A DNA stretch of 64,000 bases, taken from the NCBI GenBank assembly GCA_964406005.1, contig CAYOPZ010000006.1:7408-71407 (forward strand). The letters are read 5' to 3'. This stretch comes from an uncultured Bacteroidaceae bacterium (lineage in GTDB: Bacteria; Bacteroidota; Bacteroidia; Bacteroidales; SM23-62). Under the pieces are notes generated by a model that was given only the letters and a program-made list of their open reading frames with translations, was not told the DNA's origin and made no database searches. Positions 24,064 through 57,983 of the stretch are shown piece after piece. Made by a program: the position numbers and the translations under genes. How positions within the stretch are numbered: position 1 is the stretch's first letter; each line of letters opens with the position of its first letter.

Positions 24064-26457
24064 TTGATGTCTGTTTTCAAGAATCATATTAAATTTCCTT
24101 TGATCCTTAATATATTTTTACTATTACCTGTGTTAGGATATTCTCAGGGTATCATAATTTCCGGGAAAGTCATTGAGAAACAGAGCAGTGAACCACTGAT
24201 GGGTGCTACGGTTACCCTGCGGAGCCAGGTGGATTCTGTATTGATAGCTGGAACTGTGACGGACACTGCCGGGATGTTTGAATTCAGATCAATTACACGA
24301 GGTAATTATTTGCTGGAAATCAGTTTTATTGGTTTCTATCCTCGTGAAAGGAATCTCAATATATCTTCAGAAAATATAAGACTGGACAGTCTGTTGCTCG
24401 AACCTTCCGAGATCCTGCTGGGTGAGGTGACCGTCATGGCCCGGAAACCCACTCTTGTGAATGAGCTCGATAAAAAGGTATACAATGTGGAGGAGGACAT
24501 CCTTGCAGAATCGGGATCGGTGAGTGAGATTCTCCAGCACATACCTTCTGTTTCGGTTGATATTGATGGGAATATCACCTTGAGAAACAGCGGGAATATC
24601 ACATTTCTTATCAATGGCAGGCCTTCAGCGATGCTTCGCAGGGATGCAGCGTCGGTACTGCAACAGATGCCGGCAAACAGTATTGAGCACATCGAGATCA
24701 TCACCAACCCTTCAGCAAGATATCGCCCGGATGGAGTCGGCGGCATCATTAACATCGTAATGAAAAAAGAAACAAGGGAAGGATTGACCGGACAGGTTGC
24801 AGCCAATGCAGGATCGGAAAAAAGATACAATGCGCATTTGAACCTTAATTATGGTACCGGGGGTCTGAAACTCTTTGGAAATTATGGGCTCAGGCATAAC
24901 TCCGGGACACGGCTTTTTACGGATGAAAGGTTGTACTATGATCCTGAAGATGGAAATATCAGCAGTGATTACCACGAAACTGGGAGCTCCTCTTCAGATG
25001 GTTTTGCACATAACCTGTTTGCCGGGGGCAGTTATGAGTTTAATGACTTCAACGCCCTTGAACTTACGGGTTCTTTATTTCTTCAGAATACATATCACGA
25101 AAGTGTATCCGAAATTGCGGCCAGAGATTCTGCAGGGAATCCTGCATACAATTTCACTGACCTTTCCACGAATGACGAATTCGAGCAGGAGGGTGAAATG
25201 AGCCTTGCTTTCGAACACAAATTCAGGGACAACGAGGACCATACGCTTTCATTTGAAGCCGCATACTCCGGATATGACGAAAGTGAGGACCAGGTGTATG
25301 AAGAAAAGTATACATATCCCGATGACCGTACGGAAATCACTGGAAACCTTGTTGAAAAAAGCGGCAACCAGCAGGAGATCCTCCTTGATCATGCCCTGCC
25401 TTTTGGTGAGGACGGAGAATTTGAAAGTGGATATGCTGGTGAGTTTGTGCAGGAAGATATACGATATACCGGCGAGGCTTCCACCAGCCGTTTCCAGTTA
25501 AACCAACAGGTACATGCTCTATACGCACTGGCAGGAATGCAGATTGGAGATTTCTCATTTAAGGCTGGAGCAAGGGCCGAACAGGCATTCACCAATTCCA
25601 GGCTCAAATTTCCGGTAGATTCACTGACACAGAATAAATATTTCAAAATCTACCCGACACTCCATCTGGGATATAAACTGATTGAAAATCATGAACTTTC
25701 TCTCAGCTATTCAAAAAGAATCAACCGTCCGGATTCAGATGAACTGAATCCCTACCCCGAATATTCCGATCCCCGGAATGCAGAAGCCGGTAATCCGAAC
25801 CTGAAACCTGAACAAATCCATTCCATTGAACTGGGTTACCAATGGAGTCATCCTGTGGCTGAGATCACGAGCACCCTTTATTATCGTTACGAGTACGATG
25901 CTTTCACCACTATCTATAGTACAATCAGTGACAGTGTGGTACTGAGGACCATCTCCAACCTGAATACACAAAAATCTTTAGGCTACGAGATCGTTTTTGC
26001 AGGTTATTTTGTTAAAAACTGGGAGATGAACCTGACCGGGGATGTTTTCCATACAACACTTGACGCCACTGATCTTGGATACAGCTCAAATAAATCGACA
26101 GTATCCGGGAATATTAAATTATATTCTCAACTAAATCTCTGGAAAAATACTTTCTTTCAGTTAAACGGCTTTTACTATTTTCCAACAATTACGCCCCAGG
26201 GGAAAAGGGAATCATATTATTACATTAACGCGGGAATCAAACAGCAGCTATTCGGGAACAGGGCATCACTGATCCTTACTGCCTCCGATATTTTTCATAC
26301 TTACAGGATCAGGTACAGAATCGAATCAAATGAGCTGGACAGGTTCACAACCAGCAAGAGAAAATACCCTGTAATATACCTCGGTTTCGTCTGGAGATTC
26401 AACAATTATAGGGATCAGCAAAATCTTGAATATGAGGGAGAGGGACTTGTGTATTGA
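24064..26457 (+). CDS. TonB-dependent receptor-like outer membrane beta-barrel protein
   Basis: CarboxypepD_reg-like N-terminus (IISGKVIEKQSSEPLMGATVTL), a plug-like region, and a 797-aa beta-rich sequence. TTG at 24064 or ATG at 24067. Confidence 0.8.
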   Translation: MMSVFKNHIKFPLILNIFLLLPVLGYSQGIIISGKVIEKQSSEPLMGATVTLRSQVDSVLIAGTVTDTAGMFEFRSITRGNYLLEISFIGFYPRERNLNISSENIRLDSLLLEPSEILLGEVTVMARKPTLVNELDKKVYNVEEDILAESGSVSEILQHIPSVSVDIDGNITLRNSGNITFLINGRPSAMLRRDAASVLQQMPANSIEHIEIITNPSARYRPDGVGGIINIVMKKETREGLTGQVAANAGSEKRYNAHLNLNYGTGGLKLFGNYGLRHNSGTRLFTDERLYYDPEDGNISSDYHETGSSSSDGFAHNLFAGGSYEFNDFNALELTGSLFLQNTYHESVSEIAARDSAGNPAYNFTDLSTNDEFEQEGEMSLAFEHKFRDNEDHTLSFEAAYSGYDESEDQVYEEKYTYPDDRTEITGNLVEKSGNQQEILLDHALPFGEDGEFESGYAGEFVQEDIRYTGEASTSRFQLNQQVHALYALAGMQIGDFSFKAGARAEQAFTNSRLKFPVDSLTQNKYFKIYPTLHLGYKLIENHELSLSYSKRINRPDSDELNPYPEYSDPRNAEAGNPNLKPEQIHSIELGYQWSHPVAEITSTLYYRYEYDAFTTIYSTISDSVVLRTISNLNTQKSLGYEIVFAGYFVKNWEMNLTGDVFHTTLDATDLGYSSNKSTVSGNIKLYSQLNLWKNTFFQLNGFYYFPTITPQGKRESYYYINAGIKQQLFGNRASLILTASDIFHTYRIRYRIESNELDRFTTSKRKYPVIYLGFVWRFNNYRDQQNLEYEGEGLVY

Positions 26458-26588
26458 TTAAATGCATATTCCACTTACAGATATTTCATTTTTATAATAT
26501 TTGAGAAATAAATTAAACTAAATAAGTTAAATTCTATTTATTGATTCTCTTAACGTATTGTATGTGTGCTATTTATGGAAATGCTACA

Positions 26589-26621
26589 AGTTTCACTATT
26601 TTCAAAAGTGAAACTATTTTT
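26589..26621 (+). terminator. hairpin between convergent genes
   Basis: agtttcact (26589-26597) pairs with agtgaaact (26607-26615) and is followed by attttta. It sits between the receptor gene end and the end of the defence operon. Confidence 0.5.
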
Positions 26622-26624
26622 ACA

Positions 26625-27065
26625 TCAATTATTCGAAATCATCCCCTTACCAGGTAAACTAGCTCCCTCGTTAAACTTAGACTTTAAAATTCTACCATAT
26701 GAAAGTCTAACACGCACTTTCTTATAAACCATTTCCTTTTCTTTTGCTATTTCTGAGGTCTTAATCCAAGTTTCATAAATATCTGAAGGGCTAATTTTTT
26801 TTGGCAGAGGAGCCTTTTCGTTTATTATTGAAACATTCTTGCCTTGATCCTCAATCCAAACATGGGTAATTGTGAAATCCTTTTTATCAGATCGATTTAT
26901 GATCTTAATAAAATAACAATGTTCATTTGGTCCAAGCAGAACTGCATCGTGTACTAGTACTAATGGGCGCCTTAATTGACTAATAATCCAATAAATCATT
27001 GATACTGCTAAGGCAGAAAATACAGCAGTTGCAATGCTAATTAATGTAACGATATACCATTTCAT
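26625..27065 (-). CDS. small membrane-anchored hypothetical protein (last gene of the R-M/defence operon)
   Basis: 146 aa with an N-terminal TM helix (IVTLISIATAVFSALAVSMIYWII) followed by a soluble domain of about 110 aa. It starts 43 nt after the hsdR stop, with no intervening hairpin. Confidence 0.6.
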   Translation of the reverse strand: MKWYIVTLISIATAVFSALAVSMIYWIISQLRRPLVLVHDAVLLGPNEHCYFIKIINRSDKKDFTITHVWIEDQGKNVSIINEKAPLPKKISPSDIYETWIKTSEIAKEKEMVYKKVRVRLSYGRILKSKFNEGASLPGKGMISNN

Positions 27066-27108
27066 TACATCTCTATTTTTTTGCCGTAATAAATGAATTT
27101 CTTAAACA

Positions 27109-30100
27109 TTAAGTTCCTTGATACCTCTTAAAATTCTCCGCCTGCTCAAATATCTCCTTATACACTTCATCCCGATCCACCGGTGGATAATCATGTTCAG
27201 CTAGCAGGATGATCAGATCAACTTTCAATTCGGCCTTTATATCCTCCCGTTTTGACCAGTCAGTATATTTGGCTTTATCATCGACTACATTCTTTACCGC
27301 CTGGGCAAGGACCAGTAATTTATTTTCAGGATATTCAAAATCATACTTTATAGCCAGCGATTGAAGGATGTCGTAAAAAGCTTTTTCCTCAAAATCGATT
27401 CCAAGGTCCTGGAAGGATTCCTTTTCTTTCTTCAGTGCATGATAAAGGTCAATAATCTCATCTGTAAAGTCTTCCAGGACTTCGCTCCTGAGAACATCTG
27501 ATTCTTTCCTTTCGTTATACTTATCCACTAAGGATTTCATCCTTTTAGAAAAGTCAATCCCTTTCATTCGGTTGACTTTCTTGTAATCCTCGATAGCTTT
27601 GAGTAAAAGTTGCTGCAGGAGCTTGATCTTGGTATTGGGTAATTTTATCTTTTCGATTTTTGCCAGGTAATCTTCTGAGAAAATGTCAACTTCAGTGTTT
27701 TTATCGTCTCCCAGCTTAAATATCTCTTCTACGCCATCAGAGGAAAGTGCATCCTTGATCATCTCCCTGACCTTAGCATTCATCTGGGCAGTATCGGGGG
27801 CTGAACCTTTAGTCAATTTGAACACAATGGAGCGGACAGCAATATAAAAATGGATGTAGTCTTTTTCTATCTGGGATAGCTTTCCACTTCCGGCGCAGAT
27901 ATCATATGCTGCTTTTAGCCGTTTGACCAGGAACATGAATCGCTTCTCCAGGTCATTGGTGACCTGAACAAATTCAGCAGCCTGATTTAGGGTATGAAGT
28001 TGTTTCAATGGTGATCCATGGAAGTAGGGTGAACTATCAAACTTGTGGAAGATCTTAGCCAGCAGATCCAGGTGATCTTTGACCACCACAACGGATTGAT
28101 CGACATCTTCAAAATTCTGACTATCTGTTTTATTGTAATGGGCGAGAGCCAGGTTCATCTGTTTCTTAATACCTATATAATCAACCACCAAACCTTTTTC
28201 TTTCTCCTCGAATTTCCTGTTTACCCTTGAGATGGTCTGTATCAGATTATGACGCTGAATGGGTTTGTCTATATAGATTGTATCAAGGAAAGGAACATCA
28301 AATCCGGTCAACCACATGTCAACCACAATTGCTATTTTGAAATTGGATTTTTCATTCTTGAATTGTCGGTCAAGCTCTTTCCTGTATTCCTTTGTACCTA
28401 ACAAATTATACAATTCCTCCGGATCGTCTTTTCCCCTGGTCATGACCATTTTAATCTTTTCCATGGGTTTGATCTCTCGCTTGTCTTTTTCGGATAATTC
28501 AACTTTAGGGTCGGCAACCATAGACTTATTCCACACAGGTCTGAGAGCTATTACATTTTTATAAAACTCCCATGCTATCGGACGATTACTGCATACCACC
28601 ATTGCCTTCCCCCGGATGGTTGAACCTTCTGAAACCCTTGCTTCATAATGTTGAACAAAGTCATTAGCAACAGCCTTTAGTCGATCCGGATCACCAAGGA
28701 TCACATTCATATTGGTAACTGCTTTCTTGCTCTCTTCAATTTGATATTCATTGGATCCTTCTTCTGCACACTCGTTATAATATACCTCAATTCGCGCCAA
28801 CTCGCTGTTGTTAAGGATTACCTTTGCTGCCCTGCCTTCATAAACAATCCTCACAGTAATCTCATCATGCACGGACTCGGTCATAGTATAGCTATCAACC
28901 ACAGGACCAAATACATCGAGTGTGGCATCTATGGGTGTGCCAGTAAATCCCACATAGGTGGCATTAGGTAGTGAATCATGCAGGTATTTGGCAAATCCAT
29001 AACTTCTCATCACCCCATTTGCTGTCACCCTGACTTTCTGTTCCAGGTTTACCTGGCTTCTGTGTGCCTCGTCTGAAATACAAATTATATTTGTCCTCTC
29101 AGATAAAAGTTCAGTATCCTCTGTGAATTTGTGAATGGTGGTCAGAAATACCCCACCGCTTTGAATTCCCTGTAAACGTTCACGAAGTTCAGTACGACTT
29201 TCAACACTTATAATGTTGTTATCCCCGACAAAGCTTTTCGCATTAGTAAATTGTCCAGATAGTTGGTCATCAAGATCATTCCGGTCGGTGATTAAAATTA
29301 TGGTTGGACTGGACAGTAATTTGCTACGCATCAAAAGCCGGGTGAGAAAAAGCATCGTGAAACTCTTGCCGCTTCCTGTTGCCCCAAAATAGGTGCCTCC
29401 TTTTCCATCACCATCCGGTCTTTTATGTTTGAGGATATTCTCAAACAGCATCTTTGCACCGTAATACTGCGGATAGCGGCAAAGGATCTTCTCATCTCGT
29501 TTTGATGCATCTGGGAGGTATATGAAATTCCTGATGATGTCCCTGAGCCGGTTTTTGTTGAACATGCCCTGAATCAGGCTGTACATGGAATCAATTCCGT
29601 CAACTTCTGTTTCGTTCCCTTCAATTTTACGCCATGCATAAAAGAATTCATAGGGTGCAAAAAACGATCCTGTTTTATTATTGACACCATCGGAAATAAT
29701 GCAAAAAGCATTGTATTTAAACAATTCCGGAATATCTCTTCGATACCTGGTGGTCAGTTGAACATAGGCATCATGAATGGTAGCATTCTCCCGTATGGCT
29801 GACTTAAACTCAAAAACTACCAATGGAAGTCCGTTAATGAATAATATACCATCCGGAATTCGCTTTTCGTACCCAGTAATTTCAAACTGATTGACAAACT
29901 TATAGATGTTCTTGTCATGAGTATAATCCGGACTTTGGCCTTCTGCTGCTATCTGTTCCAAGCCCTCCGGATCCGGATCCCGGAATACGGTTAATCCACT
30001 ATAATCTATTAACTGGATATACAGGTCTTTCTGTGTCCTGTCTTCCCGTTTTAATATGAATCCGCCAGAAACCATCTTCATGATAGTCTTATTGGATTCA

Positions 30101-30327
30101 TACAGGTCTAGTGAAGCATATCCTTTTAATTGACGGATAATCTGGCTTGCTTCATTCTTCGTCAGATTTTCACTCTGATACCGGTTCAGAAGATATTCAA
30201 ACAGGTCATTCTCGATCAGAACATCATCAGTACTACGGACAATCTCAACACCCGGAACATAAGTGTAACCCTGTTGCTCCATCAATCCGATGAATGCTTG
30301 TTCTAATTTGTCTTCTGTGAAACTCAT
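27109..30327 (-). CDS. hsdR: type I restriction enzyme R subunit
   Basis: Helicase motif I GATGSGKSFTM, DEAH box ISDEAHRSQ, and motif VI-like QTISRVNR. The N-terminal MSFTEDKLEQAFIGLMEQQGY is typical of HsdR. The ATG at 30325-30327 is preferred over the track start at 30393, which would translate a repeat array. Confidence 0.9.
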   Translation of the reverse strand: MSFTEDKLEQAFIGLMEQQGYTYVPGVEIVRSTDDVLIENDLFEYLLNRYQSENLTKNEASQIIRQLKGYASLDLYESNKTIMKMVSGGFILKREDRTQKDLYIQLIDYSGLTVFRDPDPEGLEQIAAEGQSPDYTHDKNIYKFVNQFEITGYEKRIPDGILFINGLPLVVFEFKSAIRENATIHDAYVQLTTRYRRDIPELFKYNAFCIISDGVNNKTGSFFAPYEFFYAWRKIEGNETEVDGIDSMYSLIQGMFNKNRLRDIIRNFIYLPDASKRDEKILCRYPQYYGAKMLFENILKHKRPDGDGKGGTYFGATGSGKSFTMLFLTRLLMRSKLLSSPTIILITDRNDLDDQLSGQFTNAKSFVGDNNIISVESRTELRERLQGIQSGGVFLTTIHKFTEDTELLSERTNIICISDEAHRSQVNLEQKVRVTANGVMRSYGFAKYLHDSLPNATYVGFTGTPIDATLDVFGPVVDSYTMTESVHDEITVRIVYEGRAAKVILNNSELARIEVYYNECAEEGSNEYQIEESKKAVTNMNVILGDPDRLKAVANDFVQHYEARVSEGSTIRGKAMVVCSNRPIAWEFYKNVIALRPVWNKSMVADPKVELSEKDKREIKPMEKIKMVMTRGKDDPEELYNLLGTKEYRKELDRQFKNEKSNFKIAIVVDMWLTGFDVPFLDTIYIDKPIQRHNLIQTISRVNRKFEEKEKGLVVDYIGIKKQMNLALAHYNKTDSQNFEDVDQSVVVVKDHLDLLAKIFHKFDSSPYFHGSPLKQLHTLNQAAEFVQVTNDLEKRFMFLVKRLKAAYDICAGSGKLSQIEKDYIHFYIAVRSIVFKLTKGSAPDTAQMNAKVREMIKDALSSDGVEEIFKLGDDKNTEVDIFSEDYLAKIEKIKLPNTKIKLLQQLLLKAIEDYKKVNRMKGIDFSKRMKSLVDKYNERKESDVLRSEVLEDFTDEIIDLYHALKKEKESFQDLGIDFEEKAFYDILQSLAIKYDFEYPENKLLVLAQAVKNVVDDKAKYTDWSKREDIKAELKVDLIILLAEHDYPPVDRDEVYKEIFEQAENFKRYQGT

Positions 30328-30351
30328 TTTCTTTTTGTCATTCGATTTTTT

Positions 30352-30448
30352 AACATAGACAGTGTGTCTATGTTCTTGTCTATGTTGCTCCATAAGGACA
30401 GATTAATCCTCTAAACATAGACAAGCAGTCTATCTATGTGACTATGTT
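30352..30448. promoter_or_regulatory. array of AACATAGAC/GTCTATGTT palindromes (candidate operator) upstream of hsdR
   Basis: IR1 is aacatagac-agtgt-gtctatgtt (30352-30374), followed by an extra gtctatgtt (30378-30386). IR2 is aacatagac-aagca-gtctatcta (30414-30436), followed by gactatgtt (30440-30448). The two units are 62 bp apart. Confidence 0.6.
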
Positions 30449-31938
30449 GTCATATATCTGAGTTTTGGGGATTTTGGATTCTCGCCGTTTGTTTTAATCA
30501 ATTTCAGTTTCAACATTTTGGCTAGGTGTCTGCTGGTTGTTCTGGTTGTAATACCAAACTGTTCAGTATATTCTTTAGCAGAAATTTCCTCATGACTTTT
30601 TATCCATTCATAACCAGCAAGTTCATCATTGCTTAGCTGGCTCAAGGCTTTGTCACCAACCTCCTTAATTGCCTCAATGGTTCTCGGAAATACTACAATT
30701 ACATTAAGTCCATCATAGTCTATAATGGGCAGAGGCAGGTTGTATTTCTCCCTGATGGATTTAAAAGTTTCCATTCCCAATGCCGCTTCCTCCATATAGT
30801 TCATTTCATTGAAAATAAATGTAAGCTTCTTGTTTCGACTATATGAAGTGGCTGTAAAGTTTTTCATAGATTCAATTGTAATAGGAAAAACAGGCTCACC
30901 AGGACTTCTTACCTCAATTCTGTCATTGAATACATCCAACTGTACTTTAGCACCGTCTTTGGCATAATCCCGGTGGGCAATGGCATTGATTACAGCTTCT
31001 CTGATAACCTCAATCGGAAAGGAGGGGACTTGTTTTGCTTTGAATTGCTTTCGGTCAATACTTGCAGGAAGCACTTTATTTAACCAATCTTCAACCTTGT
31101 CTGGGATTAAAACCAACGCATCATCAAAAGTTACAGTACCCGTTTTCCCGTCATAATATTGGACTTTTGCCTTTAGAGCAGCCTGGGGGAATTTATTCCT
31201 TGGATTTTTACCAAAGAGAAGAATGGCATTTCCGGTTGGCAGATATGTTTTAGTCTTTGCATTATACTCCAACAAATCCATTTCTTTGAGCTCCTGTAGA
31301 AATTCTTCGGATTTCGGGGTATAATTTCTTCCGGATTCTGTAATAAATTTCTGAAGGGCTTGCTCTGATAAACTACCCATATTGGTGGCTGTTGCACGTT
31401 CATCCAGATAGTCAGAGGCTTTTTTCTTTGCTTTAGCTTCAAGATTTTTCAAGTTTGCCCATTTCATGAACTCTTTGTTTACATCTTCAATCTCCTTATG
31501 AAATTCCCGGGAAAACTGGTGCACCTTCACTCCGTTTTCAATAAGGTGATCTATTCCGCCATGGTCAACAGTGGGATTTTTATCTTCAATACCAAACCAT
31601 ACATCTGAAATTCTTGCATTGGCAATGCGCTCTGCACAGCTTATTTTAGGCGCATTCCTTGCGCCAGGAGCGCAAGGTTCAAGGGTAGCGAAAAGCCAAC
31701 AATCAGAAAGTTCCTTGTGACGGTTTTTTTTATCAAGCAATGTATATTCAGCATGATCGCCTTCACGTAATTCCCCCCTATAAGCTGTTTCAAATGTTCC
31801 GTCCGGAAATACTAGTACTGCCCCAACATAAGGGCTTGGATCTTTTTTCTTCCGTTCATGAATAGATTTTTTCATGACCTCAATGGCCAGTTTCATGTAC
31901 TCCTTTGGATCTTTCCTTGCGTCCGTTTTTTTTGCCAT
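30442..31938 (-). CDS. fusion protein: CMP/dCMP(RibD)-type zinc deaminase domain + HATPase_c_4-like ATP-binding domain + C-terminal winged HTH
   Basis: Deaminase zinc motifs are H62-A-E64 and P88-C89...C101 (LEPCAPGARNAPKISC). The middle has LPTGNAILLFGKNP and EVIREAVINAIAHRDY...IEVRSPG, as in AlbA_2/HATPase_c_4 'RecG-like' regulators. The C-terminal ISAKEYTEQFGITTRTTSRHLAKMLKLKLI is HTH-like. Confidence 0.7.
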   Translation of the reverse strand: MAKKTDARKDPKEYMKLAIEVMKKSIHERKKKDPSPYVGAVLVFPDGTFETAYRGELREGDHAEYTLLDKKNRHKELSDCWLFATLEPCAPGARNAPKISCAERIANARISDVWFGIEDKNPTVDHGGIDHLIENGVKVHQFSREFHKEIEDVNKEFMKWANLKNLEAKAKKKASDYLDERATATNMGSLSEQALQKFITESGRNYTPKSEEFLQELKEMDLLEYNAKTKTYLPTGNAILLFGKNPRNKFPQAALKAKVQYYDGKTGTVTFDDALVLIPDKVEDWLNKVLPASIDRKQFKAKQVPSFPIEVIREAVINAIAHRDYAKDGAKVQLDVFNDRIEVRSPGEPVFPITIESMKNFTATSYSRNKKLTFIFNEMNYMEEAALGMETFKSIREKYNLPLPIIDYDGLNVIVVFPRTIEAIKEVGDKALSQLSNDELAGYEWIKSHEEISAKEYTEQFGITTRTTSRHLAKMLKLKLIKTNGENPKSPKLRYMTT

Positions 31939-31954
31939 ACTTTACAAGTGAGAT

Positions 31955-33991
31955 TTAATCTGATTTTTCCTGCCACTCATCAGCAATTTTTTTCCAATCT
32001 ACATTCCTTTTAACCTGTTTTCCTTTTTTATCCTTTCCTTGCCAAACATCCCAAAAATCTGGGTCATCGGATTGTGGTCTATTTTCAACCTTTAGAAAAT
32101 TCATATGAACTAAAAGAGGTAACTCTGATGCCCAACCTAAAAGAATTGCTTTTCGTGATGGTAATGATGGCAATTCCCTCAGCATTCCTCTTAGATTGTC
32201 AGGAATTAGTTTGCTTACCAATTCCTGATCTCGATCATTACTTATTCGATGTAGTATAAAACTATTACATTGAGATAAAACAGTTGGAGATAGCTCAGAT
32301 GGTCTTTGAGAAGATAAAACCAGTCCTAATCCAAATTTTCTTCCTTCCCGTGAAATCTTTTCAAATACCTGGCTACAAATTGTACTTGCATAATTATCTG
32401 AATCTTCTTTGTATCTTTTAATAAAGGTATGTGCCTCCTCCATTACTAGAGTTGTGGGCAACGAATTACCCTCTAATTTCCTATATCTTTGAAGGGCTTC
32501 AAAAATCATCCTTGCAATAACTGAAGTTATTATATGTATAATTTCAGAAGGAACTAAAGAAAGGTCTATAATTGTAATACACCCCCGTGGATCATTGTTC
32601 TTACCGATATAGTCTCCTAACCATTTTTCCAATGTTATTTCAACCTCATCACCAATAATAGAAGTCATTCTTGTATCAGCGAGCAATGTTCTAATACGTG
32701 CCAATAGAAATTCAACGTATTGTTCATTTCCTGTTTCTTGGGCTAATGCATCTAACAGATTTAAAAATACCTCTCCTTTAAATGGAATAGGGATATCTTC
32801 GTTTTTTGGAAGTATGGATTTCTCTGATCCACCAAATGCTTTGTAAGTAGTTGTCATTACTGTTGAGATGCCCTCTATCTCTTGAGCGTCTGATTCATAG
32901 GTTGGATATTGTCCTGATCTTTGATTTTCATATACTTGGATTGATTGAATTAATTCGTTTAGTCTATCATCAGAGATTCTTGATCGATAGTATTCTAAGC
33001 TTTCTTTCCATTTGACTAACTTTAATAGGAAATTCTTTGGCCTTGGAAAAGATCCCCAAGGAGAACCAGTACTGCTTTCATGGTTCAAACTTGTTAGAAT
33101 AGTGCCCAAGAATCGTTTGATCTCAATTTCTAAATCACTTTCTTGTTCAAATACTTCATTACGCATTGCTCTGAGTGTTCTCTTTATAAGTGGCACCTGA
33201 GCCTTTGCACTAGCTTGAGCGAAGGATGTCCATTCCATACTATTCCAGAACCATATTGGAACCTCTAATGGATTATCCTCAGAATTTACTTTAAAAACAC
33301 GACCGTTAGTCCCAAAAACCCTTGAATATTCTCCATTTGGGTCCAGTATAATAAACCTGGCATTAGGATTTTTACCATCTAGTTTTACAGCTTCAAGAGA
33401 CCACTGTATAAGACCCGCAACAGTACAAGATTTACCACTTCCAGTATTTCCCAATACTGCCAAATGTCTTCCAAATAATCTGTCAGGATCAATCATTACA
33501 TCAGCATTGGCAGCTAATGGGCTAGTTCCAATTTTTACCCTCCTATTTTCTCCGGATTCTATAACAGCTCTTAATTGCTTATCAGTTGGGATAAGAACTG
33601 GTTCTCCCACGCTAGGGAAGCTTTGAATACCACGAATGAACTCATAGTGATCATCATCTCCCAGAGCTAGGATTCCTAAAGGACTAACTTTCATCTTCCT
33701 CAGGGGGAATGGTAAATCAATAAGTCCATAATCCTGGAAGCCTTTTCTTTTGGGAAAAGGAGATCGTTCTATCGAAATCCATTCCACTTGTCCCACTATA
33801 TAGCCAGCCTCAGTAGTAACTAAAACATAACTATTAATTTTGGGGAAAGATCTTGGAATTCCTGCATTTGCTGCTACTCCATCTGGAGCGTCTAGATCTA
33901 AAGTAACCTTAATTTCACTGGGTGAAACATATTCAACTACTCCAATTCTTAGAGCAGAACTTTGTTCAATAGGACTAAGACTCATCGTCAT
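31955..33991 (-). CDS. herA: HerA-like (DUF87) hexameric ATPase/helicase
   Basis: N-terminal barrel-like region. Walker A LGNTGSGKS. Walker B TLVMEEAH. 678 aa. Overlaps the SIR2 gene stop. Confidence 0.8.
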   Translation of the reverse strand: MTMSLSPIEQSSALRIGVVEYVSPSEIKVTLDLDAPDGVAANAGIPRSFPKINSYVLVTTEAGYIVGQVEWISIERSPFPKRKGFQDYGLIDLPFPLRKMKVSPLGILALGDDDHYEFIRGIQSFPSVGEPVLIPTDKQLRAVIESGENRRVKIGTSPLAANADVMIDPDRLFGRHLAVLGNTGSGKSCTVAGLIQWSLEAVKLDGKNPNARFIILDPNGEYSRVFGTNGRVFKVNSEDNPLEVPIWFWNSMEWTSFAQASAKAQVPLIKRTLRAMRNEVFEQESDLEIEIKRFLGTILTSLNHESSTGSPWGSFPRPKNFLLKLVKWKESLEYYRSRISDDRLNELIQSIQVYENQRSGQYPTYESDAQEIEGISTVMTTTYKAFGGSEKSILPKNEDIPIPFKGEVFLNLLDALAQETGNEQYVEFLLARIRTLLADTRMTSIIGDEVEITLEKWLGDYIGKNNDPRGCITIIDLSLVPSEIIHIITSVIARMIFEALQRYRKLEGNSLPTTLVMEEAHTFIKRYKEDSDNYASTICSQVFEKISREGRKFGLGLVLSSQRPSELSPTVLSQCNSFILHRISNDRDQELVSKLIPDNLRGMLRELPSLPSRKAILLGWASELPLLVHMNFLKVENRPQSDDPDFWDVWQGKDKKGKQVKRNVDWKKIADEWQEKSD

Positions 33992-35297
33992 CCTCCTTTC
34001 CTTCTTTACTAATATGGAATCCTCTTGCTTTGAGCAGTTCAGCCATCCTGAATGTTGCCTTATCTATGGCAGGTTTTGGCAAATAATTATCAACAAGGGA
34101 TTCCAAATTGCCAAAATGGTTTCCGATTAACAATGAAATCTGAACTGGTCTTTTGGCATTATCATAGAATAGTTTTATTCTATCTCCAGGATCATTGTAG
34201 GCAATAATCACGAGATGCGTTGACGGAATTGTAAGCATATCAGCAACTACCCGGTTGATATGCTCATCACCAAACCCATATCCGTATGTTACTATAGTAG
34301 AATTAGGCCTGCAAATTGCACTGGCAAAATCTCTAAATAACTCAACATATGGGTATTCAGCGGTTTCTCTATCCTTAGCTGAATTGGGATAAATCATTAA
34401 TTGATCAGCCTCCTCAATATATGTGGCTATATTTTCAGCGCCATATGGTAACGAATTTCTTTTTACATGACCCCTAGAAGAAGTCCAATCCAAGGATCCA
34501 TGAAGTTTTGTAAAGTTTACTACTCCTTCCAGATACCGGGGTTCTCCTCTAATTCCAGGTGGATTATAATGTAAATCTATTCCTAACCTCGATGAACGGA
34601 ATATTGGACATATTGTCCCAATAAATCGGTCTATTAAATGAAGGCCTGCCAATTCTGCTCCGAATTCAACAATTCTATCATAATTTGTTGTAAAGAAATT
34701 TAACCTTTCTCGAGTTGCTGATCTGCTGGCAAAGCTTAATAGGAAACTCATCAGATACTCAGCAGCTTTGGGATCCATAGCACCCACAATATTCTTTTCA
34801 GAAAATAAGATGGTGTTTGCAAATTCTGTAATACCTGATTCAAGTTCTAGCTTCAATCTATTGAGCTCTTTCCTTATTTTCTTTGAGCCATAAACATCAG
34901 TAGAAATATAAACCTCAAGTCCTTTTATTAATTCATTTATAGTCCTGATTTGGTCCTCAATATTTGGTTCCCCTCTTCCAGTTTTTTTTGCTGAAGTTTC
35001 AGACATTCTTTCAACCTGATCTTTGAATACAGTTAATTCAAATCCTCCCATATCAGCTCCTGTCTTTCCAGTAGCAAGAAGATGAACTGCTGAAGGCAGT
35101 CCTGATCCAGCTAACACAGAAAGATGTTCACTTTGGAAAAGTGCAGTTAACCAGGGTTCAATTTTAGAACGATATTCTTTTGGATCTGGACCATCACTCA
35201 ATATCTCAGGAGCCTTATTATCAGATATTTTTAATACATGCTCATTATTCCAGCTTGTCTTTGTTGATGTTACCATTTTATTTGTTATTTGATTCAT
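33975..35297 (-). CDS. SIR2-like (SIR2_2) NADase-type defence protein
   Basis: Motifs LAGSGLPS, FFTTNYDRIVE and KLHGSLDW match the SIR2_2 family pattern. It lies directly upstream of a HerA-like gene with overlapping stop/start. The start could be 35297 or the ATG at 35274-35276. Confidence 0.75.
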   Translation of the reverse strand: MNQITNKMVTSTKTSWNNEHVLKISDNKAPEILSDGPDPKEYRSKIEPWLTALFQSEHLSVLAGSGLPSAVHLLATGKTGADMGGFELTVFKDQVERMSETSAKKTGRGEPNIEDQIRTINELIKGLEVYISTDVYGSKKIRKELNRLKLELESGITEFANTILFSEKNIVGAMDPKAAEYLMSFLLSFASRSATRERLNFFTTNYDRIVEFGAELAGLHLIDRFIGTICPIFRSSRLGIDLHYNPPGIRGEPRYLEGVVNFTKLHGSLDWTSSRGHVKRNSLPYGAENIATYIEEADQLMIYPNSAKDRETAEYPYVELFRDFASAICRPNSTIVTYGYGFGDEHINRVVADMLTIPSTHLVIIAYNDPGDRIKLFYDNAKRPVQISLLIGNHFGNLESLVDNYLPKPAIDKATFRMAELLKARGFHISKEGKEDDDES

Positions 35298-36576
35298 GAA
35301 CCAGTTCTGATATTACTATCTTCCCACTAACCAGGCGAGGTATAAGAGCATCGCGAATTTCAGCAAGGTGTTTATTTTCAAGGCTTATATTATGAATCTT
35401 GCCTAAATATTCATTTACAATCTGTGAGTACTTTTCAATTATCAAATTTTCTGGATTTATTACCTGAATCTTTTGAACCATTTTAGGTTGAGCTCTTTGT
35501 CTACTGCCAGTAGTCCCAGTGACAGTTGAAAGAAGCTCAGATTGGAAATAATCTGATTTAAAAAAGAAGTAAAAGAATGGTCGGATATTAGCACGTTTTG
35601 GTACAAATTGCATAAATTCAGTTGAGCATATTGAAGATGCTTCATCGACTACATTAGGATACCAAACTCTTTGTGTTTCAGGATTGAGCTTCGATACCAA
35701 AATAGCATCTTTGTTAACCTGATATTTATTACTTTTTATATCACTTCCTTTTTCAGCGATCGCAGTTTCACCATCATCAAAAGCTGGAATCGAAAAATGC
35801 ATCCACATTTTTTCTGGGGATAGCATCGGTTTTATTGAAGTAGTATCGAGTCTACACATTGAAGAAATAGAAGATACTCGCCATTCCTTCGGCACCCAAT
35901 TCTCTAGATCCCTGCTATATTCAAACTCATTCGGAAACAACACCTTAATGTTTTCCGGTAAAGGCTTCCGTTCATCACCCAATTCTGATCTTTGCTTAGC
36001 TCTCTTTTGCATCGGTTCCGGAATATCATTTCCAGCAGCAAGGGCATTGTCAATTACAGGATCAAAATCTACAAACCAGCTTCTATAAAGAGCCTGAGCC
36101 ATTTGTCCCAGGGTATGGCTCATTTGGCGATTGAGTTCGATTTTGTCATCAAGGGAACCAATGATATCCACAATGGCTTTTTGTTCGTCAATGGGAGGAA
36201 CATTTAATTCAATTCCGTAAATAAAGTTTCGATTTAAAGACTGTTGGGCACTACCTGAATTATATAAGGAAAAATCAATCGTTTTTAACAGTAGATACGT
36301 GAAATAAGGTTCATTATTTTTAAAATCAGTGACATATAGAACAGTATTTAATGGCCAATAATTTTCTTTAATATAATTTGTAACCCCCATTGAACCGCCA
36401 CTCCTGCCAATTGTAACTCCAGGACCATTTACTTTTGCCACATTATGAAAACCTGTTATACCAAATGATCCCATGACTGGAATATTTCCGTCTTCTCTAA
36501 TTGAAGTAGGCAAATCATGTCCTCTCTGTATAGATATGAAATCTTTAAGAGTTATTTTATTCCAATCATTTACCAT
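35278..36576 (-). CDS. hsdS: type I restriction-modification specificity subunit
   Basis: Central conserved helix region VPPIDEQKAIVDIIGSLDDKIELN and C-terminal LAEIRDALIPRLVSGKI. The ATG at 36574-36576 overlaps the hsdM stop within ATGGTAAATGA. Confidence 0.85.
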   Translation of the reverse strand: MVNDWNKITLKDFISIQRGHDLPTSIREDGNIPVMGSFGITGFHNVAKVNGPGVTIGRSGGSMGVTNYIKENYWPLNTVLYVTDFKNNEPYFTYLLLKTIDFSLYNSGSAQQSLNRNFIYGIELNVPPIDEQKAIVDIIGSLDDKIELNRQMSHTLGQMAQALYRSWFVDFDPVIDNALAAGNDIPEPMQKRAKQRSELGDERKPLPENIKVLFPNEFEYSRDLENWVPKEWRVSSISSMCRLDTTSIKPMLSPEKMWMHFSIPAFDDGETAIAEKGSDIKSNKYQVNKDAILVSKLNPETQRVWYPNVVDEASSICSTEFMQFVPKRANIRPFFYFFFKSDYFQSELLSTVTGTTGSRQRAQPKMVQKIQVINPENLIIEKYSQIVNEYLGKIHNISLENKHLAEIRDALIPRLVSGKIVISELVHESNNK

Positions 36577-38116
36577 AACCAAGAAATTCAAGGTTTTGCA
36601 ATATTTTCGCATCTAATTTATTTGCTTCATCTAATTGCGATCTTAAGGTTTGAGATAGCGATGTCATCTTCTCTTCAAACAATACCCCGTCATCGTCAAT
36701 TTGAGCTGTACCAACATATCGGCCAGGAGTCAATACAAAATCATTCTTCTCAATTTCATCTCTAGTCGCAGATTTAGAAAATCCTGCAATATCTTCATAG
36801 ACTCCATCTTTCTTTTCTCCACGCCATGAATGGTAGGTTTTGCATATTTCTGTTATGTCGGCATCAGTAAGTTCTTTATGAGTCCGGTCAATCATCTGTC
36901 CCATATTCCGGGCATCAATAAACAATGTTTCTCCCTGGCGCTTCTTGAATTCATGTCTACTATCTTCTTTTTTGCTTTTAGCGATGAACCACAGACATAC
37001 TGGGATTGGGGTCGTATAGAATAGCTGTCCAGGAAGTGCAATCATACAATCCACCAGATCGTTCTCGACAAGTTTCTTCCTGATCTCTCCTTCACCCCTG
37101 GTGTTTGAGCTCATGGAGCCGTTGGCCATTACAAACCCGGCTACTCCATTTTCCGATAGCTTGGAAATCATATGTAGGATCCACCCATAGTTTGCATTCC
37201 CGGTAGGCGGTACTTGATACCCATCCCAACGGGGATCACCGGTCAATTCATCATCAGCCCGCCAATCATCCTGGTTAAATGGAGGATTTGCCATTATAAA
37301 ATCAGCTTTCAGGTCAGGATGCTGATCCTTAAAGAAGGTATCTGCTGGCACTTCTCCCAGGTTTCCGGAAATACCCCTGATAGCCAAATTCATTTTGGCC
37401 AACTTATAAGTAGTGGCTGTGTTCTCCTGTCCGTAAATGCTAATATCCTTTGTATTCCCATTGTGGCTTTCCACGAACTTGATGGACTGAACAAACATGC
37501 CGCCTGATCCGCAACAGGGATCATAGATCTTACCCTTGAATGGTTCCAGCATTTCGGCAATCAGGTTCACCACACATTTGGGGGTATAAAATTCACCTCC
37601 GCCTTTTCCCTCCGCAGCAGCAAATCGTCCCAGGAAATATTCATATACCCGTCCTACAATATCCTCTTGCTTATCGGCTATTGTATCTATGTTATTTATC
37701 GTATCCAGTAATGCTGCCAGCTTGCTTGGATCAAGTCCAAGCCTGGAAAAATAATTATCCGGCAGGGCTCCTTTCAGGGCTTGATTATTCTTTTCAACCG
37801 TATGAAGAGCAGTATCTATTTTAAGTGCGAGATCGCCCTGTTTGGCGTTTGCCATTATATAACTCCACCGGGATATTTCTGGCAGGAAGAAGACATTCTT
37901 CATGGTGTAGAATTCCGTCATTTCCAAAAACTTCTCCTTGCCCTCAGTGATAATCTCCTGTCGCCGCGCCTCAAATTTATCGCTGGCAAACTTCAGGAAG
38001 ATCAATCCCAGTACCACATGTTTGTATTCTGAACTCTCCACTGTACCACGGAGCTTTATCGCCGAGTTCCACAGCGCTTCTTCCATCGAGTTCCCGTTCC
38101 CATTCCTTTTCGCCAT
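36566..38116 (-). CDS. hsdM: type I restriction-modification N6-adenine DNA methyltransferase subunit
   Basis: N-terminal HsdM helical domain (LWNSAIKLRG...YKHVVLGLIFLKF), SAM motif DPCCGSGGMF and catalytic NPPF (MANPPFN). Confidence 0.92.
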   Translation of the reverse strand: MAKRNGNGNSMEEALWNSAIKLRGTVESSEYKHVVLGLIFLKFASDKFEARRQEIITEGKEKFLEMTEFYTMKNVFFLPEISRWSYIMANAKQGDLALKIDTALHTVEKNNQALKGALPDNYFSRLGLDPSKLAALLDTINNIDTIADKQEDIVGRVYEYFLGRFAAAEGKGGGEFYTPKCVVNLIAEMLEPFKGKIYDPCCGSGGMFVQSIKFVESHNGNTKDISIYGQENTATTYKLAKMNLAIRGISGNLGEVPADTFFKDQHPDLKADFIMANPPFNQDDWRADDELTGDPRWDGYQVPPTGNANYGWILHMISKLSENGVAGFVMANGSMSSNTRGEGEIRKKLVENDLVDCMIALPGQLFYTTPIPVCLWFIAKSKKEDSRHEFKKRQGETLFIDARNMGQMIDRTHKELTDADITEICKTYHSWRGEKKDGVYEDIAGFSKSATRDEIEKNDFVLTPGRYVGTAQIDDDGVLFEEKMTSLSQTLRSQLDEANKLDAKILQNLEFLGYGK

Positions 38117-38117
38117 T

Positions 38118-38321
38118 CTATTCTTTAATTAGTTCATCAATCGTTATTTCCAGTCCTGCTGTAATCTTTATCAGGGTATCCATGCGTGGATTCATGACAA
38201 GTCCAGCTTCAATTTTTGCCAGCGTCGTGTATGGTATGTCTGCCTTCTTGGCCAGAGCATCCTGTGTCATACTCTTCTCCTTCCGCCAGTACTTAATTCG
38301 TTCACCAATGTCAACCTTCAT
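38118..38321 (-). CDS. XRE-family helix-turn-helix protein leading the R-M operon
   Basis: 67 aa. MTQDALAKKADIPYTTLAKIEAG matches the XRE HTH pattern. Its stop lies 1 nt before the hsdM ATG. Confidence 0.8.
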   Translation of the reverse strand: MKVDIGERIKYWRKEKSMTQDALAKKADIPYTTLAKIEAGLVMNPRMDTLIKITAGLEITIDELIKE

Positions 38322-38369
38322 TTTCTTCCTTTTATTGATAGTAATATGACGAATTCAATCCATGCCTAC

Positions 38370-38401
38370 CAAATTTAGAGAAATATCTAAGCCGATGCAA
38401 A
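38370..38401 (-). promoter_or_regulatory. Bacteroidota-type promoter (-33 TTTG / -7 TAAATTTG) for the XRE-hsdM operon
   Basis: On the minus strand, TTTG (38398-38401), a 20-nt spacer and TAAATTTG (38370-38377) match TTTG-N19-21-TAnnTTTG. The site is about 50 nt upstream of the XRE ATG. Confidence 0.55.
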
Positions 38402-38428
38402 TCTTTATTGATCATAGCTTTCCACAAT

Positions 38429-38462
38429 AAAAAAGCCGGGAAGAACCAAATCTCCCCGGCCG
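38429..38462 (-). terminator. rho-independent terminator after the ankyrin/micro-ORF cassette
   Basis: On the minus strand, gccgggga...cccggc forms a stem (38435-38440 with 38455-38460) and is followed by ttttt. Confidence 0.65.
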
Positions 38463-38482
38463 CCATATTCAGCGCTGCTGCG

Positions 38483-38629
38483 CTAAATAATACATTCGTA
38501 CGGAATGTATAACTCCTCCGGAATTACGTCTCCATCGGCGTTAAAAATGTAGCCGTTCCAATCGTAGATTGGAGCATAGAGGTCGTAATATCCTGTAGAG
38601 GGATCAATTGTAACCACACTTGTTTTCAT
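38483..38629 (-). CDS. 48-aa micro-ORF (hypothetical)
   Basis: Hand-translated as MKTSVVTIDPSTGYYDLYAPIYDWNGYIFNADGDVIPEELYIPYECII. It is below the track size cut-off. It starts 6 nt after the ankyrin gene stop and ends before the terminator. Confidence 0.35.
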   Translation of the reverse strand: MKTSVVTIDPSTGYYDLYAPIYDWNGYIFNADGDVIPEELYIPYECII

Positions 38630-38634
38630 AAATT

Positions 38635-39081
38635 CTACCATTGATAAATATGTTTCATCTCATTAACTAAACGTGTTTTAATTTTTCTTGCACTTCGGTG
38701 CAGGTATTGCTGTACCGCGATATCAAACAACCTTCGGAGTTCAGCAAAGGTTAAAAGTGATGGGTTGAACGCATCAAGAAGAGTTTCCAATAGATCTGGG
38801 TATAGCAACGCAGATTCAAGGACTTCATAGGAAACATCTGCCCCCGCTTTAACCAGGCAACTGGCCACTTTCGTGTATCCATTTCTTATCGTACTAGCAA
38901 GGGTAGAGGTGCCAAACAATTGCATTGCATTAATATCAGCGCCTTTTTCCAATGCGGCAACTACGCCAGGATAGAATCCGTGTCTTGTTGAGCTTAGTAG
39001 CATCTCATCAGCAGATAGACAGGATAATGATTCCCAAATCTCCTGCTCAGTTTTTGGTTTTAAAATCTCACATATCTCCAT
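38635..39081 (-). CDS. ankyrin-repeat protein
   Basis: Two recognisable ANK-like units: GFYPGVVAALEKGADINA and GTSTLASTIRNGYTKVASCLVKAGADVS. Confidence 0.5.
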   Translation of the reverse strand: MEICEILKPKTEQEIWESLSCLSADEMLLSSTRHGFYPGVVAALEKGADINAMQLFGTSTLASTIRNGYTKVASCLVKAGADVSYEVLESALLYPDLLETLLDAFNPSLLTFAELRRLFDIAVQQYLHRSARKIKTRLVNEMKHIYQW

Positions 39082-39253
39082 ATTTCAACATTTTTGATTT
39101 TTCGAGAAAACATAACTTCCCCCTTTAATTTTAGTTTTATATGATCATACCCCCCTCCAGGTTGTTGATTCCCAGTAATTTTTTTAAAAAAAGATTCTCC
39201 GTTGATGGGATATTAATATTTTTACCTCATAACAACCAATAATACAGAGACAT

Positions 39254-48675: not shown

Positions 48676-48786
48676 ATTGTGGCGAAATTACAGGCCTCAA
48701 GTTATGTTTTTTTTACGACATGGTATGATCTCCCAGAATATGCCCATCAGGACAATGTTATGGCTGGTATGAAACAGGACCCCGGA

Positions 48787-50501: not shown

Positions 50502-50507
50502 AGTATA

Positions 50508-51113: not shown

Positions 51114-51234
51114 AAACCGACCGTTCGGTTTGTAAATATAATATTTTATAAACTTTATATAGGTATGAATTCTACATTCTGATATTTTTATAGCAGCATT
51201 AAACCTGTTTAATCGTCTGAAATACCAAATCCAC

Positions 51235-53154: not shown

Positions 53155-53221
53155 GCGCTCGTTCACGGATTTTGCCTGTTTACACGAAAATCGTAATTTG
53201 TACGGACCAAATCATAACGAC

Positions 53222-54433: not shown

Positions 54434-54443
54434 TGCACTGTAC

Positions 54444-57861: not shown

Positions 57862-57983
57862 AAGGTATCTCAGCATCGGACCACAATCAGAGGACAGGGC
57901 ATTCGTCCCTGTCCTTTTAATTTTATCACGGTTTTTACCATATCCCGAGGATTTCCTTAAATTCGTCGGTAAAACGGAACGCC

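Follow-up and report, generated by a model that had tools for sequence, protein, structure and literature searches.

A SIR2-HerA pair and a deaminase fusion gene between hsdS and hsdR of a type I restriction-modification unit from Bacteroidota

On a 64,000-nt stretch of DNA from an uncultured Bacteroidaceae bacterium (assembly GCA_964406005.1, contig CAYOPZ010000006.1, positions 7,408 to 71,407; this whole stretch is called the window here), the genes of a type I restriction-modification (R-M) system are located in one 11.7-kb cluster, in which hsdR is separated from hsdM and hsdS by genes for a SIR2-family protein, a HerA-family ATPase and a fusion protein consisting of a deaminase-like domain, a HATPase_c_4 domain and a winged helix-turn-helix (wHTH). 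This raises the question whether the R-M system was broken up by foreign genes, or whether R-M genes and inserted genes form one defence unit. It is quite probable that the cluster represents a composite defence unit, whose cargo was inserted or exchanged between hsdS and hsdR of an intact type I R-M system, and that the hsdS-hsdR junction is a hotspot of the respective hsdR lineage.

Layout of the unit and cargo at the hsdS-hsdR junction

The methyltransferase subunit HsdM was matched by the Pfam models N6_Mtase (2.2e-109, 366 bits) and HsdM_N (2.3e-21, 77 bits), both above cutoff, and by the PADLOC model MTase_I (1.2e-181, 604 bits). In HsdS, Pfam Methylase_S was found in two stretches, which represent two target-recognition domains, and the PADLOC model Specificity_I (4.9e-91, 304 bits) covered residues 13-439 of the 444-aa translation of the open reading frame (ORF). 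HsdR comprises, without interruption, the Pfam domains HSDR_N, SWI2_SNF2/ResIII, T1R_D3-like and T1RH-like_C, and was identified by PADLOC (REase_I, 1302 bits) as well as by NCBIfam (hsdR, 450 bits; cutoff 284.55). The possibility that the hsd genes are degraded pseudogenes, which had been raised in a preliminary description of the locus, was looked at and was not borne out; the PADLOC matches to the type I models are near full-length. As judged by these models, the type I R-M system is intact.

All genes of the unit are of full length and are located on the minus strand (ORF listing, Pfam, PADLOC). Their order is XRE-type helix-turn-helix (HTH), hsdM, hsdS, SIR2, HerA, fusion, hsdR and a small ORF with a putative transmembrane (TM) helix (Table 1), as the preliminary description had stated. 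Its account of tight junctions was confirmed by reading the sequence: the stop codon of the XRE gene and the ATG of hsdM are 1 nt apart; hsdM and hsdS overlap within ATGGTAAATGA (by 11 nt with the hsdS start at 36576); SIR2 follows hsdS after 1 nt, or overlaps it by 20 nt from an upstream ATG; SIR2 and HerA overlap by 17 nt; and 16 nt separate HerA from the fusion gene. Likewise, the proposed distance of about 5 kb between hsdMS and hsdR was confirmed: between hsdS and hsdR of a complete type I R-M system lie three non-hsd genes of the defence type, all on the minus strand. PADLOC, which had been proposed for the island, yielded matches to type I R-M and SIR2-HerA models.

The start of hsdR is most likely the ATG at 30327 rather than the first ATG at 30393, because the alignments of 80 relatives begin with residue 1 of the shorter form and because the gene call of the closest relative begins at the equivalent codon. 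Therefore, the fusion gene is followed by a gap of 114 nt that is filled by a repeat array, and not by a short spacer, whereas every other junction comprises at most 16 nt or overlaps.

A survey of cargo between hsdS and hsdR in related type I loci, as had also been proposed, showed that the split is not peculiar to the window. Eighty metagenomic loci with an hsdR product 69-76% identical to that of the window were fetched, and in 54 of these hsdS was present upstream on the same strand. Cargo of 1-9 ORFs (0.6-8 kb) was found between hsdS and hsdR in 42 of the 54 loci (78%); 11 were without cargo and one possessed a 2.4-kb gap lacking an ORF. All 114 cargo ORFs are located on the hsd strand, and they occupy 57 of 60 protein clusters (the clustered set also took in three ORFs of locus L036). 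According to Pfam, HATPase_c_4 (15), SLFN_AlbA_2 (13), RhuM (8), AAA_21 (8), AAA_13 (7), DUF6088 (6), AbiEii (5), GmrSD_N (5), SIR2_2 (4) and the reverse transcriptase domain RVT_1 (4) occurred, beside the rarer TIR (3), HerA (2) and Shedu (2) and pAgo in one locus. Judged by Pfam and PADLOC, this content is typical of defence cargo. In this hsdR lineage, the split of hsdS and hsdR is the normal state and cargo is the rule, which makes the lineage a rich and cheap mining ground for new defence genes.

Such an organisation has been described before. Payne and colleagues reported that type I R-M, BREX, DISARM and Hma systems often hold embedded genes, which were co-oriented with the host system in 96.7% of the cases; this was read as possible co-regulation (10.1101/2024.01.29.577857). 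The genes found by this 'guilt-by-embedding' and the prr locus (hsdM-hsdS-prrC-hsdR) share with the window defence genes nested in the same orientation in a restriction system; SIR2, HerA and deaminases are not mentioned in the main text of that paper. Furthermore, Zhang and colleagues dissected by experiment the RRDM island of enteropathogenic Escherichia coli, RptR-hsdM-hsdS-DarTG2-hsdR-M48, with an active, RptR-repressed promoter upstream; they termed the hsdS/hsdR site a potential recombination hotspot and also observed other cargo there (PMC12255303). A small HTH regulator, hsdM, hsdS, abortive-infection-type cargo, hsdR and a trailing gene are common to this island and the window. The two differ in cargo (DarTG2 versus SIR2-HerA and the deaminase fusion), in the regulator (RptR versus a 67-aa XRE/SinR-like HTH protein without detectable similarity to RptR structures in the PDB), in the host (Gammaproteobacteria versus Bacteroidota, with a predicted promoter of the Bacteroidetes type) and in the last gene (M48 peptidase versus small TM ORF). 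Near-identical DNA was not found among the E. coli genomes or plasmids searched. Co-regulation of restriction with embedded abortive-infection modules, as suggested in the preliminary description, agrees with the layout, whereas its novelty does not stand, since it was published before. The window is a further instance of a documented organisation and its arrangement is not unusual; it adds a case from Bacteroidota, with a defined candidate promoter of the Bacteroidetes type, to a phenomenon mostly studied in Proteobacteria.

The three genes described as inserted are not one insertion, because SIR2-HerA and the fusion gene behave as two independent modules. In the related locus L001 (loci are given by their numbers), the frame of the unit is conserved (identities to the window: RadC 88%, 195-aa recombinase 86%, XRE 93%, fusion 88%, hsdR 84%), and a 750-aa AAA_13 protein (PADLOC PDC-S06; weak match to the PrrC model, 1e-13) replaces SIR2-HerA. 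In L031 (XRE 94%, hsdM 88%), a 261-aa ORF and a QatC-like 623-aa ORF precede the fusion gene, as they also do in L033 and L034. Conversely, the locus L036 (hsdM-hsdS-SIR2-HerA-Shedu-hsdR) holds the closest SIR2 relative found (66% identity), and in L037 SIR2-HerA is located beside Lamassu genes without R-M genes. Additionally, the DNA homology of the window to five other loci, among them L033, L034, L008 and L031, begins precisely at the ATG of the fusion gene (31938). A system of three genes, SIR2, HerA and fusion, was rejected, as each part occurs without the other.

The first module is, by its sequence matches, a canonical two-gene SIR2-HerA system. SIR2 was identified with the PADLOC model SIR2 PDLC04079 (5.6e-159, 527 bits; residues 39-437 against positions 32-425 of the 430-position model), and its start agrees with the public gene call of an identical protein (433 aa, 100%). 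The motifs FTTNYD and KLHGS align to SIR2 of the solved SIR2-HerA complex 8yhx, and the protein is also homologous to 8j4u. HerA matched PADLOC HerA PDLC04098 over its full length (7.4e-253, 839 bits) as well as Pfam DUF87; its Walker A (GNTGSGKS) and Walker B (LVMEEAH) motifs align to the PDB chain 9c1m, deposited as 'ATP-binding protein'. With the known SIR2-HerA (Nezha) systems the pair shares two overlapping genes, the sirtuin motifs, the HerA Walker motifs and near full-length PADLOC matches. It belongs, however, to a subfamily (PDLC04079/PDLC04098) distantly related to the solved ones: phmmer matches to these cover about half of the SIR2 length, and the pair is far below the cutoffs of the NCBIfam anti-phage equivalogs. 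It also differs in lacking a promoter of its own and in being located inside an R-M unit. According to published experiments (PMC13434337 among others), systems of this family protect alone and act by NAD+-depleting abortive infection.

Table 1. Features of the unit and of its boundaries in the window
Feature	Position	Strand	Basis or remark
Intrinsic terminator of the upstream gene, marking the 5' boundary of the unit	38434..38461	-	11-bp stem with 7 G-C pairs, then TTTTTTATT
Predicted Bacteroidetes-type promoter	38370..38401	-	-33 TTTG at 38401-38398, -7 TAAATTTG at 38377-38370, 20-nt spacer
XRE-HTH, 67 aa	38118..38321	-	Pfam HTH_3, PADLOC
hsdM, type I methyltransferase subunit	36566..38116	-	Pfam, PADLOC
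hsdS, specificity subunit	35278..36576 (alternative start 36612)	-	Pfam, PADLOC; start read from sequence
SIR2-family NADase-type effector of SIR2-HerA system	33975..35276 (alternative start 35297)	-	PADLOC
HerA-family ATPase, SIR2 partner	31955..33991	-	PADLOC, Pfam DUF87
Fusion of dCMP_cyt_deam_1, HATPase_c_4 and C-terminal wHTH, 498 aa	30442..31938	-	Pfam
Repeat array in the gap between fusion gene and hsdR	30352..30449	not assigned	Repeat families D2 and I8
hsdR, restriction/translocase subunit	27109..30327 (ORF extends to 30393)	-	Pfam, PADLOC, NCBIfam
146-aa ORF with N-terminal hydrophobic helix	26625..27065	-	43 nt after hsdR
A/T-rich 9-bp hairpin after the last ORF	26589..26615	-	Fold z = -2.1, no U-tract

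The deaminase fusion and its repeat array

In the fusion protein, a RibD/dCMP-deaminase-like domain (residues ~10-165) is combined with HATPase_c_4 (329-417) and a C-terminal wHTH (~430-498). For the N-terminal domain, the closest matches were RibD deaminase domains and dCMP deaminases (PDB sequence search, NCBIfam, Foldseek): the PDB sequence search yielded RibD deaminase domains and 3lmm, and Foldseek yielded RibD, dCMP deaminases of phage and human origin and TadA. The residues H62, A63, E64, C89 and C101, which form the HAE and PC...C zinc and catalytic motifs, are invariant in 30 fusion homologues. The AlphaFold2 (AF2) model reached a mean predicted local distance difference test (pLDDT) score of 64.7 and is confident for the deaminase domain and the wHTH only. 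Because its middle region is poorly modelled and unusable at residues 240-390, the fold search is informative on the deaminase domain only.

By domain composition, the fusion is a sister architecture of the AlbA_2-HATPase_c_4-wHTH proteins. The body of HATPase_c_4 and C-terminal HTH is common to the fusion and the COG2865 proteins (AlbA_2(Schlafen)-HATPase_c_4-wHTH, 'RecG-like transcriptional regulator'; 3lmm), whereas their N-terminal AlbA_2 domain is replaced in the fusion by the RibD/dCMP-deaminase-like domain, and no SLFN_AlbA_2 match was obtained. Of all cargo recorded between hsdS and hsdR in the survey, proteins of the COG2865/AlbA_2 type were the most frequent. One cluster of ten cargo proteins, which match the fusion at 24-28% identity and occupy the last position before hsdR, most likely consists of such AlbA_2-HATPase_c_4-wHTH proteins. 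These members end at or overlap the hsdR start and leave no room for a repeat array, whereas the deaminase family possesses a 3' array. Nucleotide-deaminase defences (dCTP deaminase) and nucleic-acid deaminase toxins have the cytidine-deaminase fold and the intact HAE and PC...C zinc site in common with the fusion; the difference lies in the RibD deaminase domains, which match the fusion best.

The fusion gene is the more useful lead of the locus, and its family is large. A search at E<=1e-30 yielded 184 cluster representatives (clusters at 50% identity), of which about 90 are full-length, with identities down to 28%. It is spread over many phyla at 65-90% identity and has a cultured host, Pedobacter insulae. 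Among 50,697 phage records and among 72,556 plasmids, a full-length homologue was not found, and matches of about 25% identity covered the HATPase_c_4-HTH part only, and IMG/VR yielded none with two queries; a phage or plasmid origin was therefore rejected. Weak PADLOC matches to pAgo-associated models were treated as noise from shared domains and not as membership. In the literature searched, no described counterpart of the combination of deaminase, HATPase_c_4, wHTH and cognate repeats was found.

In about 12 of about 31 distinct loci, a number without a control set, the fusion gene directly follows methylation-based restriction genes. These are type I genes (window, L001, L031), PLD-SNF2 with MmeI-type IIG genes (L007, L027, L032-L034), an Eco57I-type IIG gene (L120), and SNF2-NOV_C with a DUF1156 methylase (L118); L029 possesses SNF2-NOV_C and an unannotated downstream ORF. 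In L119, L023 and L024, the fusion gene is located alone among housekeeping genes. In the tentative cassette reading given below, this recurrent position behind type I, type IIG and SNF2/DUF1156 genes would mark the family as a general accessory of methylation-based immunity.

Some of these loci showed further peculiarities. A small DprA/Smf-like protein (152-178 aa, weak match to PADLOC PsyrA) is encoded directly beside the fusion gene in seven loci (L033/L034 at 9542-10000; L007 at 11667-12203; L009, L021, L027 and L028 just downstream of the fusion gene), and in L032 the 261-aa and QatC-like 623-aa ORFs immediately precede a fusion fragment of 50 aa at the end of the contig. The DprA/Smf-like protein and the 261-aa/QatC-like pair may be functional partners of the fusion. 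L033 and L034 possess near-identical operons of PLD-SNF2 and MmeI-type IIG genes; between the helicase and the methylase-nuclease gene, L033 holds in addition a pair of the cyclic oligonucleotide-based anti-phage signalling system (CBASS; CD-NTase and Cap15, 1993-3563; L034 3570-3575), a second nesting of defence in defence. In L118 (2570-13509), a distant fusion homologue of 44% identity is located between the SNF2-NOV_C helicase gene and the DUF1156 methylase/DUF499 pair, and the locus also holds an M78 peptidase-DUF4411 pair; it is an R-M-like system with nested cargo of its own.

Beside the protein, a repeat array in the 3' flank is a recurrent feature of the fusion gene. All four exact copies of the word CATAGACA in the 64-kb window lie within 30354-30423, and two adjoining copies with one mismatch extend this to 30354-30446. 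In the array, the copies are grouped into two modules at a distance of 62 nt; a module comprises two copies in direct and one in inverted orientation, separated by spacers of 3-5 nt, and module 1 begins at the stop codon of the fusion gene. Repeated 7-mers (at least two direct copies and an inverted copy) follow the fusion stop codon in 27 of 29 loci, compared to 9.5% of control windows, and at least five copies occur in 14 of 29 loci, compared to 2 of 5162 control windows. The typical form is again two modules of 9-mers; further arrays are located in L001 (11493-11590) and L119 (7500-7600) as well as in L008, L019 and L023.

Across the loci, at least eight repeat words were found (CATAGACA, CTTGGACA, CATGGACA, TCGCCA, GCATGGAA, ATCGCGACA, GCATCGACA and CTGGACA; GCATCGACA is the word of Pedobacter insulae). 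Differences in the word go along with differences in the recognition helix and the wing of the wHTH (TSRHL...KSPKLRY, AQRHL...SPNYKY, AERLL...GPSTTY, AQNQL...KSNKYKY). Residues 1-430 of the fusion are similar to about the same degree within repeat classes (78%) and between them (74%), whereas the 70 C-terminal residues are not (67% within and 37% between classes). The window fusion and that of L008 thus have similar bodies (89%), dissimilar tails (42%) and different words; compared to L011, the body is 75.5% and the tail 57% identical and the word is the same. As the bodies are alike and the tails unlike between repeat classes, wHTH and repeats appear to be exchanged as one block, independently of the body. 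The co-inheritance of tail and repeats could be due to physical linkage alone. However, all five or six copies agree within a locus and differ between loci, which suggests that one reader is shared by the copies; the simplest candidate is the adjacent wHTH. From this pattern we infer that the wHTH of the fusion may bind the adjacent repeats.

On this basis, the fusion gene can tentatively, and with less than even confidence, be regarded as an undescribed, widely transferred single-gene cassette that encodes a protein together with its own DNA address, the C-terminal wHTH of which would bind the 3' modules. In Pedobacter insulae the gene next to the array is convergent, and therefore the array is not primarily an operator for a downstream gene. 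In the window, the fusion protein could gate read-through into hsdR via the array in front of it; or it might be kept inactive on its own locus until phage attack disturbs the host DNA and it is released as a deaminase effector. The family would carry a built-in and easily testable protein-DNA specificity code. If the pairing of wHTH and repeats is real, it would provide a set of orthogonal DNA-binding modules and may point to a novel mode by which a defence effector is regulated or triggered.

Two other interpretations of the array were rejected. An integron-type cassette does not fit, as the 3' element consists of two directly repeated modules of 9-mers and not of one attC palindrome, and as the nearby 195-aa recombinase is invertase/Xer-like (not IntI) and absent from most other loci. 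A genome-wide element similar to repetitive extragenic palindromic (REP) sequences does not fit either, because within 64 kb the word occurs at a single spot and, in other loci, is restricted to the 3' flank of the fusion gene. In addition, an extra module of another repeat class follows the two cognate modules in L034 (11506-11650), L010 (11473-11620), L028 (11485-11660), L009 (2694-2860), L019, L021 and L022, for example CTTGGACA modules followed by a CATAGACA module. These extra modules may represent remnants of former specificity blocks, or may serve as sites for a different member of the family.

Expression of the unit and competing explanations

The -33/-7 consensus of Bacteroidetes promoters is established for Bacteroides and was searched for here, given the Bacteroidota-type neighbour genes. 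TTTG-N20-TAAATTTG upstream of the XRE gene is the sole match to the full consensus on the minus strand in the region and is a likely promoter; its -33 element coincides with the end coordinate (38401) of the region originally noted. The upstream terminator, the -7 box and the leader are kept in L001 and L031. That the operon contains no internal hairpin terminator, as had been stated, was upheld: the scan yielded 13 weak sites, compared to 10.2 +/- 2.9 expected by chance, and the sole strong terminator is the one just upstream of the promoter. Downstream of the last ORF, the A/T-rich hairpin is a weak candidate for the 3' end of the unit; it faces a convergent TonB-dependent receptor gene (24064-26457; OMP_b-brl_3 and Plug domains). 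Whether the 146-aa ORF is a member of the unit is uncertain; searches of Pfam, PADLOC and NCBIfam yielded no match to it, and it lacks conservation 3' of hsdR in L001. In the RRDM island, its position is occupied by the M48 peptidase gene.

The XRE protein (Pfam HTH_3, 9.2e-14; PADLOC models HTH_VI, capH and Control_protein, 1e-7 to 2e-10), which is 93% identical in L001 and 94% identical in L031, is a putative controller or repressor of the unit. Like the controller (C) proteins of R-M systems, it is a small XRE-type HTH protein encoded first and translationally close to the methylase gene; the Control_protein models match it at 1e-7, weaker than the generic HTH models. Membership in the RptR family was rejected, as a PDB sequence search (E<=1e-3) gave SinR and HipB only and the molecular structure of RptR is reported as determined (PMC12255303). 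RptR repression requires at least two sites, palindromes of the TAGCTA type (PMC12255303); in the promoter stretch, a single RptR-type 6-bp word, TAGATA, was noticed by eye, without a systematic search. The XRE protein may nevertheless work in an RptR-like manner.

The tight junctions, the one consensus promoter and the lack of a strong internal terminator fit a single transcript, which is plausible for the whole 11.7-kb cluster. The genes from XRE to the fusion would be co-transcribed and translationally coupled, hsdR would be reached by read-through across the repeat array, and the XRE protein would repress or time the promoter, as C proteins and RptR do elsewhere. Restriction would then serve as first-line defence at the DNA level, and SIR2-HerA as an NAD+-depleting abortive infection backup once phages escape restriction. 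The fusion would bind its cognate repeats via the wHTH and would be a further ATP-dependent sensor or effector, with deamination of nucleotides or nucleic acids as possible output.

Several points weigh against this view. The activity of every protein is deduced from family membership, and co-transcription and read-through into hsdR are deduced from the gene layout. The strong hairpin-forming repeats in the 114-nt gap could terminate, pause or gate transcription. In L001, the equivalent gap comprises 355 nt, which would leave room for an hsdR promoter of its own, and the pattern search would have missed Bacteroidetes promoters that are weaker than the full consensus. Neither an operator of the XRE protein nor, in 38322-38433, a C-box-like inverted repeat was identified. 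No model of PADLOC-DB 2.0 specific for the fusion matches it; its defence role is suggested by context, and many homologues sit among housekeeping genes.

Some of these points lend themselves to another explanation, which is possible but is on balance not favoured: hsdR might be controlled separately, with the array as terminator, roadblock or operator, so that at least two transcripts are formed and restriction is uncoupled from hsdMS and the cargo. Separate promoters of hsdR and hsdMS are classical in EcoKI of E. coli. The length of the gap, which is exceptional among the junctions of the unit and even larger at the same place in L001, its strong folding as RNA (minimum free energy -34.2 kcal/mol, z = -4.7) and its six copies of a word that is likely bound by a protein fit such control. 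However, the hairpins of the gap have no U-tract on the coding strand, a consensus Bacteroidetes promoter is absent within the gap, and in many loci of the survey the last cargo ORF ends near the hsdR start or overlaps it (for example, end at 10004 and start at 10001). Moreover, the repeats accompany the fusion gene in contexts without hsdR and hence were not built for hsdR control. An Rfam search of 26000-39500 identified no known RNA family; its one match was at chance level (19 bits, gathering score 117).

It is unlikely that the cargo of the window is instead wired to the R-M system in the way the anticodon nuclease PrrC is wired to EcoprrI, i.e. as one guard system that is kept latent on HsdMSR and fired by a phage anti-restriction protein. 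The cargo occupies the same position between hsdS and hsdR as prrC, and PrrC hardly occurs outside type I systems, in which it is embedded (10.1101/2024.01.29.577857); the cargo of L001 at this slot has the weak PrrC-model match, and the fusion family recurs directly behind methylation-based restriction genes of type I, type IIG and SNF2-NOV_C systems. Against this, SIR2-HerA protects alone in published experiments (PMC13434337 among others) and is present without R-M genes in L037, the fusion occurs alone among housekeeping genes, and the diversity of about 60 protein clusters at the junction argues for a permissive insertion site and not for specific partnerships.

That the hsd genes are mere remnants of an R-M system split and inactivated by its cargo, with only the cargo functional, is highly improbable: hsdR is indeed about 5 kb distant from hsdS and HsdM scores below the NCBIfam equivalog cutoff (174.7 versus 242.75), but none of the three hsd ORFs is interrupted, all cover the Pfam and PADLOC models almost completely, HsdR is above its NCBIfam cutoff, the split layout is the majority state among the 54 related loci, and a functional island of this layout has been published for enteropathogenic E. 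coli (PMC12255303).

Neighbouring genes in the window

Upstream of the composite unit, an invertase/Xer-like tyrosine recombinase of 195 aa, a RadC-like JAB protein and two small ORFs without assignment are encoded. The ORFs at 39254-39841 (+), 39843-40292 (-) and 38483-39081 (-) are conserved together with the operon in L001 (82.7% DNA identity). A phase-variable hsdS shufflon driven by the 195-aa recombinase was considered and rejected: a second hsdS, an hsdS fragment or an invertible segment was not found near the recombinase gene, the upstream ORFs of 148 and 52 aa had no Methylase_S match, and no inverted repeat of at least 18 nt links hsdS to nearby DNA beyond chance-level pairs.

A 411-aa integrase of the Bacteroides type (Arm-DNA-bind_5, Phage_int_SAM_5) is encoded at 40871-42106 (-), 2.5 kb upstream of the operon, and it is possible that the R-M unit is part of a mobile element that has integrated. 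Further neighbours in the window include receptors with OMP_b-brl_3 and CarboxypepD_reg domains. The G+C content is about 36-45% in 2000-48000 and 50-58% in 48000-64000; the low-GC part is not simply one island, because ordinary genes are present there (a two-component system, a resistance-nodulation-division (RND) efflux pump and TonB-dependent receptors). At the left end of the window, a tRNA-Met gene (1546-1620) is followed by a gene for a VapE/BT4734-like primase on the opposite strand (1983-4253), and this region is likely a second integrated element.

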